Source: Candidatus Ryanbacteria bacterium RIFCSPLOWO2_12_FULL_44_26 (GTDB lineage: Bacteria; Patescibacteriota; Minisyncoccia; Ryanbacterales; HO2-45-13). From it: 64,000 bases of DNA. Where the stretch lies: contig MHOA01000001.1 of NCBI GenBank assembly GCA_001821765.1, positions 88,294 to 152,293 of the forward strand, given 5' to 3'. The position numbers were made by a program, and so were the translations under genes. Below are positions 12,579-18,829 of this stretch, in pieces. How positions within the stretch are numbered: the first letter of the stretch is position 1; every line of letters begins with the position of its first letter. Below the pieces are notes generated by a model that was not told the DNA's origin, ran no database searches, and was given only the letters and a program-made list of their open reading frames with translations.

Positions 12579-14843
12579 CTACAGCGTCTCCCGTCTAAGG
12601 AATCTGAATATTTTTGCCAGTTCCGGAAGCCAAGGTCGGTCAAAGTGCGCAAGGAGCGCGGGAAGCAGGATCAAATCTCCAAAAAGAGCATACAGCATTG
12701 TTACACTAAGGAGCCGGGAAAATGTGTGGTATGGAATCAGGTCTGCCATATTCATTGCGAGAAATCCGGCGACAACGGCGACGGTGCTGGTCACAATCGG
12801 GAATGCGAGCTCTTGGATGGTTTTTTTTACTGCTTGTTCAGGAAGAAAACCGCTCTTTCTGTGATGCGTATATTGTGCGAGAAAATGTCCCGTATCATCC
12901 ACAACAAGACCAAGCGCAATGGCGCTGACGATGGAACTGCCAATATCAAGATCAATCTCAAATATTCCAAGCAGAGCCAAGCTTCCGAGCACCGGCAGGG
13001 CGTTTACGACAATGGCAAAAGCGGCGAGTTTTATAGACCGAGTCAGCACTACGAACGTGACAAACACCAGCATTATTCCGGTCGCAAGTGACCGCATATT
13101 TTCTTTGGCAATTTGAATGCCTGCACGGAAGAATTGTGCGACTCTGCCTGTAAGAACAGCGTCAATCCTGTTTTCTTGCGCGAAACTTTTTACAGCTCTA
13201 TCAAATTTGCTGAAATCGTCCGAATTTCGAAAAGGCGTTTGGAGAAGCACTGTCAGGCTTGTTCGATCGTGGCTGATGTACGGTTCAATGTCGTCATCTT
13301 CAAATAACAGGAGGAACTGCGATACCCCCTCTTTCTTTTTCGGAAATTCTTCAGGCATATCCTCGTCGGCGCTGAAAGCCAGGCTCAATTGCCGCAATTG
13401 ATCGTAGAAGTTTGAAGCCCTCAACCCCGGGATGAGTATTTTTTGTTTTTCAACAAATGCATGGACAGTATTCTGTACTTTTGGCTCAACAGCGATTTCT
13501 TGGTGGATATTATCAAACACCGTAAGCGGGATAACGTATGTTCCAAAAATTTCTTTTACCCGATCAAACTGTAAATGGACAGGATTGTTTTCCTTAAGGT
13601 AATCAATCGGTCCGTAGTTTACCTTGAGTTTTCCAATCCCCAATGCGCTAACGGCAGTCAAGATGGCAATCAGCACTATCGTTTGTCGGCCAGTAAGCAT
13701 AAACAAATGCCGATTTCCGTCATTCGGTATCTTGTCTTCATCATCCTTTTTCCTAAACGCAAGCACAGGAAAGGTGAGTGTTATAGTGACAAAAAGACAT
13801 GCCAGAATCCCAAATGTCCCCAGAAATCCGAATTGCCTGACAGCGGGAATGCCGCTTATTCCGGTGGTGCCAAAGCCGATCATAGTTGTAATCACAGCAA
13901 ACGCAAACGGCCGTAGTGCAGATGCCGGAAGCCATCCAAAAAACATGTTTCCGCCGCGCTTCGCATAGCCGAACGCATGAATCGTAAATGCAGCCCCCAG
14001 AGGAATCAGCAGGTTGACCATAAGAACATTGACCGGATTTTGCGGGATGCCAACGATAACCATCAGCGCAAAAGTAAGCGCCGTTGTTGAAATTCCCGTA
14101 GCTCCTGCGAGGATGCCGACCAATACAGATCTTGTCTGTATCCAAACAACCGCCATCATGATAAACACCACGATCGGCAGTATCATTGAAGCGCGGTCTG
14201 TTGCGCGGGAAAGTTCAGCGCTGACATTCAGCTCGCCGCTTTGAAGCAAATCTCCGCCGTTACAGTCTGAAGAAACTCCATCACAAAACCCTCTGCGAAA
14301 GGCACTGCGGTGTTTTTCCAAAACAGCCTTTACTCCGTCACTTACTGTCAGCGCGTCAGTCTTTTTTTCAGCAACTATATATATCGCAACCGCTGTTGCT
14401 TCAGCGTTAATGAGCAGGTTTTTGTATGGGACATACGCAACAGCCAGCTCACAGCGCTTTTGAGCATCAGCGGAAACGTCTGGAAAATTCTTTACCTCAA
14501 CGGTATTGCCTCTACCGGCAATATAGTTAGCGTTTGTAAGAGAGATGACCCTGTCAACGCCCGACAAACGCTCAAGATCGTCTGAAAGGAGCGTAAGACG
14601 CTTCCATCCTTCTTCTGTGCAAAGCGCATTTCCGGTCGCGACAACGATATTTCCAGCGTCGCTCGGAAATTCCTCAAGATATCTCTCGTAGTACCGCGCA
14701 CTTACATCACCCCTCGGAAGAAGGGCAGTGTAGTCGTCATCGGTGGTGAGATGTTTGAGAAATGGTACACTGACCGTAAATACCAACGTGAAAAACGCAA
14801 TGGCGCTTTTGCGGCCAAAGGCACGCATCATCCATTCCTTCAT
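12579..14843 (-). CDS. MMPL/RND-superfamily membrane transporter (lipid/exporter type)
   Basis: 754 aa, two 6-TM bundles each preceded by a large loop, typical MMPL/SSD architecture. Confidence 0.6.
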   Translation of the reverse strand: MKEWMMRAFGRKSAIAFFTLVFTVSVPFLKHLTTDDDYTALLPRGDVSARYYERYLEEFPSDAGNIVVATGNALCTEEGWKRLTLLSDDLERLSGVDRVISLTNANYIAGRGNTVEVKNFPDVSADAQKRCELAVAYVPYKNLLINAEATAVAIYIVAEKKTDALTVSDGVKAVLEKHRSAFRRGFCDGVSSDCNGGDLLQSGELNVSAELSRATDRASMILPIVVFIMMAVVWIQTRSVLVGILAGATGISTTALTFALMVIVGIPQNPVNVLMVNLLIPLGAAFTIHAFGYAKRGGNMFFGWLPASALRPFAFAVITTMIGFGTTGISGIPAVRQFGFLGTFGILACLFVTITLTFPVLAFRKKDDEDKIPNDGNRHLFMLTGRQTIVLIAILTAVSALGIGKLKVNYGPIDYLKENNPVHLQFDRVKEIFGTYVIPLTVFDNIHQEIAVEPKVQNTVHAFVEKQKILIPGLRASNFYDQLRQLSLAFSADEDMPEEFPKKKEGVSQFLLLFEDDDIEPYISHDRTSLTVLLQTPFRNSDDFSKFDRAVKSFAQENRIDAVLTGRVAQFFRAGIQIAKENMRSLATGIMLVFVTFVVLTRSIKLAAFAIVVNALPVLGSLALLGIFEIDLDIGSSIVSAIALGLVVDDTGHFLAQYTHHRKSGFLPEQAVKKTIQELAFPIVTSTVAVVAGFLAMNMADLIPYHTFSRLLSVTMLYALFGDLILLPALLAHFDRPWLPELAKIFRFLRRETL

Positions 14844-14952
14844 GTTCCTTCTCCTTTGTCAAAGAGAAACGTAAATCTATGTTGAAAGTACTACAAATAT
14901 ATCGTTTTGTCAATTAAATGAGTGGTATATAATTGTTATAAGAGCGTTTTTC

Positions 14953-15003
14953 AATAATAATAATAATAATAATAATAATAATAATAATAATAATAATAAT
15001 AAT
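14953..15003. repeat. (AAT)17 microsatellite in divergent intergenic region
   Basis: 51 nt perfect trinucleotide repeat between the MMPL gene (minus) and the acyltransferase gene (plus). Confidence 0.95.
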
Positions 15004-17144: not shown

Positions 17145-17170
17145 ATTTATATCTTAAAAACACTAGCTGG

Positions 17171-18829
17171 ATGTTAAGTGTTGCCAACAATATTTTACTG
17201 ACTGTTGTTTTCATCAACTTTATTCTTGGTTTCGCGGTTCTCAGAAGAAACTGGAAAAATCCCACTAACCTTGCTTATTTACTGCTTACGTTTTCCATAA
17301 TATTATGGGCTATTTCTCTTTTCTTTTTTAGGGCAGCAAATAGCATTGATAATATTCTCATTATTGGGAAAATTGTCTACACAATCCCTCCATTCATTCC
17401 ATTCTTTTTTCTTCTGTTTGTTTATTCACTAGTTGGATCAAAAATTTCTTTACTAAAACTAGCAGTCTTTCTCTTACTTCCAACCATACTTATTTCTGTT
17501 ATTAGTCTGGAAACTTCGTTAGTAATAGCTGGCGCCGTGATAGAAAGAGGGATTAACCAGCTGCACTTTGGTTCTTTTTACTTTTTATATCTTTCTTATC
17601 TTACGCTTTATTTTTTAATAGGATTTATAACTTTATTCAAACGGTATCGTACTGAAAACAATCTGATTAAAAAAGCTCAATATAGACTTATACTCATTGG
17701 AGTAACTACTGCAATAGTGGTAGGGCTTTTTGCTAATGGATATTTCCTAACAACTTTTGCGTTTCAATATAACTGGGTTGGGCCAATAGGGACGGTATTT
17801 ATGGTAACACTCTTCGCTTACGCTATTGTCCAATATCGTTTATTTAACATTAAAGTAATTTCTGTTCAGATATTTGGCGGAGCTTTAGCTGGCGTACTTT
17901 TAGTAAAGTTATTATCCTCTCAAGGTCCCAGCGATTTTACCTTTAATAGTATAATATTTATTGGAGCAGTTGTTATAACTATTCTTCTAATAAGAGGAGT
18001 ACTCAAAGAAGTGGAAACAAGAGAAAAAATACAGGAACTGGCGGGGAAACTAGAAGCAGCAAATGCAGAACTTCGGCAACTGGATAAAGCAAAGTCAGAA
18101 TTTATTGATATTGCTTCTCATCAATTGCGCACTCCGCTCTCTATTATGAAAGGGTACTTGTCAATGCTGAATGAAGGTACGTTTGGGAAGTTGTCTATAA
18201 AATTGAAAGATCCGTTAAATAAAATCTATATTTCAAACGAGCGCCTTATTACGCTTGTCGCGGATTTGCTTGATCTTTCGCGAATTGAGCGAAAAAAACT
18301 GCAATATTCATTTGAACATATGCAAGTTTCCAATGTTATTCACTCAATTGTGATAGATTTTAAACAAACAGCCAGACAAAAAGGTCTGGCACTGCATTGG
18401 AGAAAACCAAAAAAACTGCCGCTTGTCTATGCCGACCCGCAAAAGCTGCGTCAAGTGTTTTTAAATATTATTGACAATGCAGTAAAGTACACAAACAAGG
18501 GATCAATTGATATTTCATTAAAACAAGACGGTGATTTTATTGTTTTTTCCGCAAAAGACACCGGTATTGGGTTAACAGAGAAAGAAGCACAGCGGCTTTT
18601 TCAGAAATTCGTTCGGGGAGAAGAAATGAAACGGGCAAAAACACAGGGCATGGGGCTTGGGATGTATGTGGCAAAATTGATTATTCAGGATCACCGGGGA
18701 GCAATTTGGGCGGAATCTCCCGGAAAGGGAAAGGGGAGTATCTTTTTCGTAAGACTGCCAATAGCAAAATCCGAAAACAAAGAAGACGAAAATGAAAAAC
18801 AAATGGAAGAATTTATTAAGAATATCTAA
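17171..18829 (+). CDS. sensor histidine kinase with N-terminal multi-TM (about 7 helices) sensor domain
   Basis: H-box ASHQLRTPL, N-box IIDNAVKYT, G-boxes DTGIGL / GMGLGM; no response regulator adjacent. Confidence 0.85.
   Translation: MLSVANNILLTVVFINFILGFAVLRRNWKNPTNLAYLLLTFSIILWAISLFFFRAANSIDNILIIGKIVYTIPPFIPFFFLLFVYSLVGSKISLLKLAVFLLLPTILISVISLETSLVIAGAVIERGINQLHFGSFYFLYLSYLTLYFLIGFITLFKRYRTENNLIKKAQYRLILIGVTTAIVVGLFANGYFLTTFAFQYNWVGPIGTVFMVTLFAYAIVQYRLFNIKVISVQIFGGALAGVLLVKLLSSQGPSDFTFNSIIFIGAVVITILLIRGVLKEVETREKIQELAGKLEAANAELRQLDKAKSEFIDIASHQLRTPLSIMKGYLSMLNEGTFGKLSIKLKDPLNKIYISNERLITLVADLLDLSRIERKKLQYSFEHMQVSNVIHSIVIDFKQTARQKGLALHWRKPKKLPLVYADPQKLRQVFLNIIDNAVKYTNKGSIDISLKQDGDFIVFSAKDTGIGLTEKEAQRLFQKFVRGEEMKRAKTQGMGLGMYVAKLIIQDHRGAIWAESPGKGKGSIFFVRLPIAKSENKEDENEKQMEEFIKNI

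Follow-up and report, generated by a model that had tools for sequence, protein, structure and literature searches.

A conserved Patescibacteria gene module combining a LuxI-fold N-acyltransferase with a membrane-embedded histidine kinase: a candidate lipid-signal synthase and receptor

Bacteria of the Candidate Phyla Radiation (CPR, or Patescibacteria) are ultra-small and dependent on hosts, most have not been cultured, and lipid biosynthesis is generally missing from them. Among the questions they pose is how they sense their partners and manage their membranes. The question is raised in a concrete form by four consecutive genes of Candidatus Ryanbacteria bacterium RIFCSPLOWO2_12_FULL_44_26, which occupy positions 15012-18829 of a 64,000-nucleotide stretch of contig MHOA01000001.1 (termed here the window; contig positions 88,294 to 152,293) and which encode an O-acyltransferase, a methyltransferase, a GNAT N-acyltransferase and a polytopic sensor histidine kinase. 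What might such genes be doing side by side? The analysis described here, which covers the 64-kb window and 17 related loci elsewhere in Patescibacteria, suggests that they belong to a single operon-like module found in several lineages of this group, and assigns a probability of roughly one half to the interpretation that the module specifies a lipo-amino-acid signal synthase together with an intramembrane receptor kinase. As such it offers a concrete target in which acyl-amino-acid chemistry may be coupled to a membrane receptor kinase.

Gene content and recurrence of the module

The features of the locus, numbered from the first nucleotide of the window, are as follows:

15012-15695, plus strand: LPLAT/PlsC-superfamily O-acyltransferase of 227 residues (PF01553), the first gene of the module
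15770-16474, plus strand: class I S-adenosylmethionine (SAM)-dependent methyltransferase of 234 residues (Methyltransf_25, Methyltransf_11)
16512-17144, plus strand: GNAT N-acyltransferase (FeeM, Autoind_synth, Acetyltransf_5)
17171-18829, plus strand: polytopic sensor histidine kinase with about nine transmembrane segments (HisKA_7TM, coiled coil, HisKA, HATPase_c)
12579-14843, minus strand: MMPL/HAE3-like RND transporter (PF03176), a divergent neighbour outside the conserved module
14953-15004: perfect (AAT)17.3 microsatellite within the 168-nucleotide divergent intergenic region

An earlier interpretation made from the nucleotide sequence alone (termed here the sequence-only reading) had placed five open reading frames (ORFs), with their motifs, and the (AAT)17 repeat at these positions, all of which are confirmed; its domain assignments are likewise borne out, in every case, by Pfam and NCBIfam profile searches. 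The four plus-strand genes are separated by spacers of 74, 37 and 26 nucleotides, and the locus is also found in many other assemblies, from the Rifle aquifer and elsewhere.

Related loci were gathered in two ways. A first sample consists of the neighbourhoods of eight further GNAT homologues (25-41% identity). A second, independent sample was obtained by scanning a methyltransferase alignment over GTDB species genomes, where the scores were sharply bimodal (at least 249 bits versus at most 85), and by analysing the resulting loci with local hidden Markov models (HMMs); six of the 17 comparison loci were chosen via this methyltransferase seed. Fifteen loci, the window included, bear the GNAT gene (25-42% identity), and in all fifteen of them the kinase gene either adjoins the GNAT gene or is separated from it by one module gene, the methyltransferase. 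An acyltransferase counterpart lies nearby in ten of the fifteen, which upholds the proposal that the N-acyltransferase is paired with an O-acyltransferase of PlsC type, and an orthologous methyltransferase is present in eleven (or in five of nine, within the sample that is free of methyltransferase-seed bias). Judging from these arrangements, the genes at 15012-18829 constitute one operon-like module conserved in Patescibacteria, the invariant core of which would be the FeeM/LuxI-fold N-acyltransferase and the membrane-embedded histidine kinase. The gene content of the other GNAT-bearing loci, and of two loci that contain the methyltransferase but lack the GNAT gene (L020 and L023), is:

L006: acyltransferase, GNAT-methyltransferase fusion, kinase
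L007: acyltransferase, one opposite-strand ORF, GNAT, methyltransferase, kinase
L009: acyltransferase together with an ABC-F gene, roughly 5 kb upstream of GNAT, methyltransferase, kinase
L011: kinase, methyltransferase, GNAT, kinase
L013: acyltransferase, GNAT, kinase
L014: GNAT, kinase, among sugar-modification genes
L015, 5201-12072: acyltransferase, GNAT, convergent kinase and a non-orthologous Methyltransf_20-type methyltransferase, between S8 and L5 of the ribosomal-protein operon
L016: acyltransferase (4-bp overlap), GNAT, kinase
L018: acyltransferase, GNAT, methyltransferase, kinase
L019: acyltransferase, methyltransferase, GNAT, kinase, which is the gene order of the window
L021: acyltransferase, methyltransferase, GNAT, kinase
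L022: kinase, methyltransferase, GNAT, kinase
L024: methyltransferase, GNAT, kinase, receiver protein
L069: methyltransferase, GNAT, kinase
L020, 5205-11276: LPLAT, acyl-ACP-reductase/PigE-N-like reductase, orthologous methyltransferase, NifS-like class V aminotransferase, 7TM kinase, unannotated multi-transmembrane protein of 230 residues
L023, 4055-8464: orthologous methyltransferase beside a DedA(VTT)-PAP2 fusion and a canonical PlsC-like gene, without GNAT or kinase

Within this set the order of the methyltransferase and GNAT genes is shuffled among loci while the adjacency of the kinase persists, and in L016 and L018 the ends of module ORFs abut or overlap. One protein of 454 residues (P0002, from assembly GCA_964653715.1) is a fusion of the GNAT enzyme with a C-terminal methyltransferase, its two halves being 42% identical to the separate proteins of the window; this fusion, which bears out the suspected involvement of the methyltransferase, provides a strong Rosetta-stone link between the two enzymes. 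Recurrence in many distant genomes, the overlapping ORF ends and the one fusion together indicate that the grouping exceeds chance, and thus favour the view, taken in the sequence-only reading, of the four co-directional genes as one functional unit. Binning or labelling errors may lie behind some of the taxon labels carried by metagenome-assembled genomes among the relatives (Lysobacteraceae, Gammaproteobacteria, Saccharibacteria).

Two of the variants bear upon how the module is built. In L020 the GNAT gene is absent and a reductase (TIGR04058, 1e-19; PigE, 5e-40) stands in its place between the acyltransferase and the methyltransferase; therefore a different acyl-thioester enzyme fills the synthase slot, which suggests that this slot is interchangeable. 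In L015 the kinase is laid out for co-transcription with a methyltransferase that is not orthologous to that of the module.

The module also stands apart in base composition. Within the window its GC content is 30-37% versus 45-50% in the flanks, and GC content at third codon positions (GC3) is 0.28-0.33 in its four genes versus 0.38-0.41 in the neighbouring genes other than the MMPL gene; it is AT-richer than its flanks in nine of the nine loci measured, by 1 to 8 GC points. This AT-richness might stem from low expression, from amino-acid composition or from exchange between CPR genomes. A recent genomic island was considered and rejected: distant relatives have the module at the corresponding syntenic position, AT-richness relative to the flanks is shared by all nine loci, and no tRNA or integrase genes flank it in the window.

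The divergently transcribed transporter gene, which the sequence-only reading had included in the module as an exporter, is a different matter. Its product matches PF03176 (43.9 bits versus 20.5) and scores 92.7 against TIGR00921 (cut-off 351.9). Neither an MMPL homologue nor a homologue of the NHL-repeat protein encoded downstream of the kinase was found in any of the 17 other loci. Moreover, L013 is syntenic with the window (CysRS, CorA, an S41 protease and L9 upstream; AspRS, ScpA, ScpB, PBP5 and MraY downstream), and the module there is without the MMPL gene. Because it recurs in none of 17 loci, is absent at the syntenic L013 and has a distinct GC3 (0.475), the MMPL gene is an unrelated neighbour and not a member of the module; the exporter should accordingly stay out of the module's annotation.

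The N-acyltransferase and its enzymatic partners

The GNAT protein of the window passes the thresholds of three Pfam models, namely FeeM (PF21926; 28.9 bits versus 27), Autoind_synth (PF00765; 25.3 versus 24) and Acetyltransf_5 (PF13444; 23.3 versus 22.4). At the level of the family, for which model matches were counted over 36 aligned members, both FeeM (best 1.8e-21) and TIGR03694, which describes NasY-type, exosortase-associated acyltransferases (best 1.2e-28), are matched by 36 of 36; PF13444 is matched by 35 and PF00765 by 15. Two OlsB models are matched weakly, by seven and by four members (best E 7.1e-5 and 9.9e-6), and the TraI AHL-synthase model of NCBIfam by one, where AHL denotes N-acyl-homoserine lactone; the window protein itself has no match to any OlsB or OlsF model. 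Among the families by which the sequence-only reading could be checked, Acetyltransf_5, Autoind_synth, LPLAT, Methyltransf_11/25 and MMPL all score over threshold, whereas OlsB does not match the window GNAT. The family is small, inasmuch as an exhaustive HMMER search of 1.84 billion proteins yielded only 87 cluster representatives, with the fusion protein P0002 as the top match; word-indexed homologue searches returned, for the window GNAT, only itself and, for the family profile, seven proteins on short contigs.

An AlphaFold2 (AF2) model based on the family alignment is confident, with a predicted local distance difference test score (pLDDT) of 94.5. When it is compared with the PDB using Foldseek, the top eight matches are AHL synthases, LasI, MesI, TofI and BjaI among them (E 1.6e-10 to 5e-8; TM-score 0.59-0.73), with FeeM only at rank 33 (TM-score 0.56). 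A search of the family profile against PDB sequences gives BjaI 9e-10, MesI 1.5e-7, RpaI 4e-7, LasI 9e-6 and FeeM 0.019. The signature residues of LuxI-type enzymes (R24, F28, W34, D45, D48, R68, E97 and R100) have equivalents in the window GNAT, these being R40, Y44, Y49/F50, D62, D65, R84, E108 and R111, of which D62 and R84 are invariant across the family. We know of no evidence that these shared positions separate AHL synthases from N-acyl amino acid synthase (NAS) enzymes. Because of the family model matches, the AF2 fold and the LuxI-type signature positions, the enzyme is predicted to be a LuxI-fold N-acyltransferase on the NAS/AHL-synthase branch and not on the OlsB/GlsB branch, with which the sequence-only reading had compared it; the two branches are phylogenetically distinct (PMC11631085). 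Sequence cannot discriminate between an N-acyl amino acid and an AHL as what it makes, though the sequence families favour the former.

Comparison with characterized enzymes places the GNAT between two groups. FeeM/NasY-type synthases, which use an acyl thioester as donor and an amino acid as acceptor, are its best sequence-family match (36/36) and share with it both the LuxI-like GNAT fold and the E-x-S-R motif; it differs from them in falling under the TIGR03694 cut-off, in lacking a PEP-CTERM/exosortase context, and in having a kinase, a methyltransferase and an LPLAT as partners. LuxI-type AHL synthases (LasI, TofI and EsaI, and the CoA-dependent BjaI, MesI and RpaI) are its closest solved folds (TM-score 0.64-0.70); from these it differs in that identity is 14-16%, that it has an extra N-terminal helix, that the signature F and W positions carry Y or F, that no LuxR accompanies it, and that AHL models match it weakly or not at all. 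A Kyte-Doolittle scan gives no support for membrane anchoring of either the GNAT enzyme or the methyltransferase. A link to the PEP-CTERM/exosortase system, to which the TIGR03694 match and a ScyF-like NHL neighbour might point, was considered and rejected: the ScyF-like match is limited to the NHL repeats, the NHL protein terminates in ...RFSCP, with no PEP-CTERM tail, and its gene is absent from all of the other loci.

The acyltransferase is an LPLAT-superfamily protein by profile (PF01553, 54.5 bits versus a threshold of 23) and by motif, with NHKTHFD (the HX4D motif) at residue 56 and FPEGG at residue 141. Among seven orthologues, N56, H57, D62, P142, E143, G144 and P172 are invariant; the block II arginine is not, and in block III PEGG/Q/K takes the place of the canonical EGTR. 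In terms of the LPLAT motif literature, these last two departures may signify a loss of phosphate binding. The window protein falls below the PlsC equivalog cut-offs (TIGR00530, 50.1 versus 102.95; NF011593, 14.8 versus 501), and the best specific matches of all seven orthologues are to Aas-type (acyl-ACP-phospholipid O-acyltransferase) domains, down to 4.5e-16. The proposal that it is of OlsA type fares poorly: the window protein matches neither OlsA (NF052553) nor OlsF (NF052615) at E<=0.1, and these models are matched by only two of the seven orthologues (E about 4e-3 to 5e-3).

The methyltransferase is a generic class I enzyme (Methyltransf_25, 63 bits versus 27; Methyltransf_11, 62.5 versus 21.2), with motif I, LDAGAGTG, at residue 43. 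Orthologues of 42-59% identity lie beside GNAT and kinase genes in other Patescibacteria, and its nearest solved relatives are phosphoethanolamine N-methyltransferases, the similarity extending over the Rossmann core only. L023 is the one locus that ties the methyltransferase to phospholipid metabolism.

The kinase, the proposed signal and its rivals

The kinase scores over threshold for HisKA_7TM (PF16927, 64.9 bits), HisKA (PF00512, 59.7) and HATPase_c (PF02518, 85.9), and its catalytic boxes are intact: the H-box SHQLRTP (H317), N436, the G1 box D463xGxG and the G2 box G493xGxG. It had been described as an orphan 7TM kinase; the first term holds, in that no receiver domain is detectable in any protein of the window, but a crude hydropathy scan finds about nine hydrophobic segments rather than seven. 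Pfam and this same scan show a sensor domain on neither the extracytoplasmic nor the cytoplasmic side of the membrane, and no fused receiver domain. The kinases of the module align over their full length, the transmembrane region included, at 26-46% identity; a word-indexed search with the transmembrane domain returned four proteins. In three loci (L019, 3549-5762; L022, 3265-5499; and L024, 4096-6787) a GAF domain is inserted between the transmembrane region and the DHp domain. Because a receiver-only protein directly follows the kinase in L024, the module kinases are considered genuine two-component kinases; no receiver domain was found in the other 16 of the 17 comparison loci.

These properties recall a familiar arrangement. 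In the LuxM/LuxN, AinS/AinR, CqsA/CqsS and LqsA/LqsS systems a synthase gene lies beside, or one gene away from, the gene for a multi-transmembrane histidine kinase that senses a lipophilic ligand in the membrane, and the corresponding regulator is usually encoded elsewhere. The interpretation favoured here, with about even odds, is that the module likewise encodes a signal synthase, in this case of a lipo-amino-acid, and its intramembrane receptor kinase; it is favoured because the pairing of a constant synthase with a kinase that senses only within the membrane resembles that layout. The parallel with the Vibrio and Legionella systems is one of architecture and adjacency: LuxM/AinS and the pyridoxal phosphate-dependent CqsA belong to enzyme families other than that of the module GNAT, and kinases of the LuxN/CqsS type are hybrids that feed a phosphorelay through a receiver domain, which the module kinase does not carry in fused form.

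On this interpretation, the GNAT enzyme would use an acyl thioester to place a fatty acyl chain on the amino group of an amino acid or amino-acid-like amine. The methyltransferase would then methylate the GNAT product, either at the carboxylate, so as to give an uncharged, AHL-like N-acyl amino acid methyl ester, or at a nitrogen, and the LPLAT would add a second acyl chain or else handle the lipid acyl donor or acceptor. The kinase would sense the lipophilic product inside the membrane and phosphorylate a response regulator encoded elsewhere in the genome, or, in the case of L024, possibly the adjacent receiver protein. The sequence-only reading had cast the kinase as a mere controller of lipid remodelling; it is, however, the most constant partner of the GNAT (15 of 15 loci, versus 10 of 15 for the acyltransferase), and this difference points to signalling rather than bulk lipid remodelling. 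The occurrence of the module in non-syntenic settings (L014 and L015) also counts in favour of this interpretation.

Several considerations weigh against it. The acyltransferase partner, present in ten of fifteen loci, fits a two-step aminolipid pathway more naturally than it does a signal synthase, and the adjacency of the kinase could also reflect membrane-state regulation of a membrane-lipid pathway. No response regulator, acyl carrier protein (ACP) or acyl-activating enzyme is detectable in the window, and the module kinase, unlike LuxN and CqsS, is not a hybrid. The Pfam scores of the window GNAT are barely over threshold and its TIGR03694 score (50.8) lies under the curated cut-off of 111.95; for members of this GNAT family the substrate, the product and its site of methylation are inferred from sequence, as is the identity of the kinase's ligand with that product. 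Finally, the model of the kinase transmembrane domain, built on five sequences, is of moderate confidence (pLDDT 77), and its matches to receptor 7TM and GPCR bundles are weak (TM-score about 0.5).

Part of this picture has been published. In an in silico screen of CPR and DPANN genomes for quorum-sensing genes, which used BLAST and HMM searches, Bernard et al. (2020, mSystems; PMC7567580) found 18 LuxI homologues in CPR that adjoin a sensory kinase and proposed these as candidate complete quorum-sensing systems. Five Ryanbacteria RIFCSP genomes, RIFCSPHIGHO2_02_FULL_45_43 (OGZ48657/OGZ48658) included, appear in their Table S4 with the same scores, and in each of the five a LuxI-seed HMM match is immediately followed by a kinase; judged by genome name, this is very probably the GNAT-kinase pair of the window. 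CqsS-sensor HMM matches are reported there for some CPR neighbours, but for the Ryanbacteria kinase only a generic ATPase-domain match, and an HdtS-like gene is listed for Taylorbacteria only (PMC7567580). Both the pair and its quorum-sensing interpretation are therefore already in print, and no later experimental work on the pair was found in the literature. That study calls the synthase a LuxI/AHL enzyme and is silent on the methyltransferase and its fusion to the GNAT, on the systematic presence of an LPLAT partner and on the 7TM sensor family. What the present analysis adds is the composition of the module from four genes, the fusion, the assignment of the synthase to the NAS branch instead of the AHL or OlsB ones, the variants with a GAF domain, a receiver protein or a reductase, and the exclusion of the MMPL gene.

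A more specific version of the signalling interpretation can be offered only tentatively, as a conjecture that is more apt to fail than to hold. Patescibacteria would possess a lineage-specific form of lipid signalling, in which a synthase of NAS/LuxI fold, together with the methyltransferase and the LPLAT, produces an N-acyl amino acid that bears a methyl group and possibly an O-acyl group and that is detected in the membrane by a receptor-like polytopic kinase. Such a signal, its chemistry distinct from that of AHLs and its synthase interchangeable (as in L020), might serve communication between epibionts, or between epibiont and host, in organisms unable to make fatty acids. To our knowledge no signalling system has been demonstrated in this phylum. 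If the module is one, it would combine a new signal chemistry with a logic like that of LuxN and CqsS.

The rival that survives best, although it is itself somewhat improbable, is a structural aminolipid pathway without the MMPL exporter, in which the GNAT would act like OlsB/GlsB to form a lyso-aminolipid, the LPLAT like OlsA/GlsA to add the second acyl chain, and the methyltransferase like OlsG to modify the head group, the kinase merely regulating expression under membrane or envelope stress. Two-step N- and then O-acylation is the established route to acyloxyacyl aminolipids (PMC11631085, PMC12971839), and the gene logic of the module is that of OlsBA, GlsBA and the OlsF fusion described in the same two reviews: adjacent GNAT and LPLAT genes (paired in ten of fifteen loci and overlapping by 4 bp in L016), plus a SAM methyltransferase that could act as a tailoring enzyme. 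That 35 of the 36 GNAT members match PF13444, which is common to aminolipid N-acyltransferases, and that the methyltransferase is structurally nearest to phosphoethanolamine N-methyltransferases, is in accord with such a pathway. Against this, the GNAT family lies on the NAS/AHL side (TIGR03694 in 36 of 36 members, versus seven and four for the OlsB models at E of about 1e-5 to 1e-4, and none for the window protein), and OlsA/OlsF models barely match the acyltransferase (two of seven members, E about 4e-3), which is dispensable in a third of the loci (five of fifteen), whereas the kinase is missing from none and has no counterpart in the Ols and Gls pathways. Moreover, conversion of NAS-type N-acyl amino acids to membrane lipids by further acylation is unreported (PMC11631085), an association of aminolipid clusters with kinases is not described in either review (PMC11631085, PMC12971839), and OlsB requires a 3-hydroxyacyl-ACP, for which no ACP was found in the window. 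Were this pathway nonetheless the true one, the module would contain the first NAS-branch enzyme that feeds an acyloxyacyl lipid.

Less probable is a role in membrane-lipid salvage or homeostasis, according to which an Aas-like LPLAT would re-acylate scavenged lysolipids, the GNAT and methyltransferase would modify amine-containing lipids, and the kinase would respond to the state of the bilayer (its thickness or lysolipid load) without a specific ligand. The Aas-type domains that best match all seven acyltransferases (down to 4.5e-16) are what such a role would predict, as is a kinase that has no sensor domain outside the membrane; and in L023 a methyltransferase orthologue does adjoin the genes for a DedA-PAP2 fusion and for a canonical PlsC-like protein, with neither GNAT nor kinase. 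L023 is, however, a lone exception among eleven loci with orthologous methyltransferases, and salvage explains neither why an enzyme of NAS/LuxI fold should be the kinase's invariant partner nor why the methyltransferase should be fused to it.

A canonical AHL quorum-sensing system, as Bernard et al. (2020) proposed, with the GNAT as a true LuxI-type synthase that takes SAM as amino donor and the kinase as a LuxN-like AHL receptor, appears quite unlikely. The fold is indeed closest to those of LasI, MesI, TofI and BjaI, the family profile matches the CoA-dependent BjaI, MesI and RpaI better than it does FeeM, the LuxI signature positions are kept (with aromatic substitutions), PF00765 is marginally passed (25.3 versus 24), and the pair is listed as a candidate AHL system (PMC7567580). 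Yet PF00765 matches 15 of the 36 members where FeeM matches all 36, and the TraI model one where TIGR03694 matches all 36; and a dedicated, sometimes fused, methyltransferase and an LPLAT would be left without a role.

The last and weakest proposal, that four functionally unlinked housekeeping genes are held together by Paceibacteria synteny alone, draws on the fact that several genomes have the block in an equivalent location, directly upstream of AspRS-ScpA-ScpB-PBP5-MraY or with lineage-specific genes intervening, but is close to refuted by the gene fusion and overlapping ORF ends, by the unrelated contexts of the module in L014, L015 and L024, by the persistence of kinase adjacency despite a shuffled methyltransferase and GNAT order, and by the depressed GC3 that the four genes share.

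Other features of the window

The microsatellite in the intergenic region that separates the MMPL and acyltransferase genes is the sole one of the 64-kb window, and its 3' end lies 8 nucleotides before the acyltransferase ATG. There are 17 repeat units in four independent assemblies and at least 18 in a fifth, the contig of which (L005) breaks inside the tract. Possibly this is a length-variable regulatory tract or part of a 5' untranslated region; as regards phase variation, the difference between 17 and at least 18 units is suggestive at most. Scans for promoters and terminators gave nothing over background.

Between the kinase gene and murA, at 18960-20936, lies the gene for the NHL protein mentioned above, a secreted-looking protein of 658 residues with thrombospondin type 3 repeats, a cysteine-rich middle portion and NHL beta-propeller repeats, to which its resemblance to ScyF is confined. 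This gene has a higher GC content, is absent from all related loci and constitutes a lineage-specific insertion.

The rest of the window contains dcw cell-wall genes, MreB genes and housekeeping genes. Upstream of mraZ (minus strand), at 47942-48078, are tandem AAAGTGG / TGTGGATAA repeats, and the window's only three exact matches to the DnaA-box consensus TTATCCACA fall within this same interval; the repeats may represent MraZ operator sites, DnaA boxes or a combination of the two. At about 36000-38500 cumulative GC skew peaks and gene orientation turns, convergently, from nearly all plus to nearly all minus; at the turning point lie a PD-(D/E)XK nuclease gene and 1.3 kb of sequence devoid of long ORFs, and the region has the look of a replication terminus. 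At 40354-41257 (minus strand) an Aminotran_4 ORF of 200 residues covers profile positions 77-223 only and overlaps, in another frame, an ORF of 143 residues just upstream, so that the two are possibly a frameshifted or split gene for a D-amino-acid or branched-chain aminotransferase. Lastly, the dcw and other cell-wall genes are accompanied by genes for two type IV pilin-like proteins, which carry N_methyl motifs, and for two MreB paralogues, at 41277-43236 (minus strand), 53178-54233 and 58026-59048 (minus strand).

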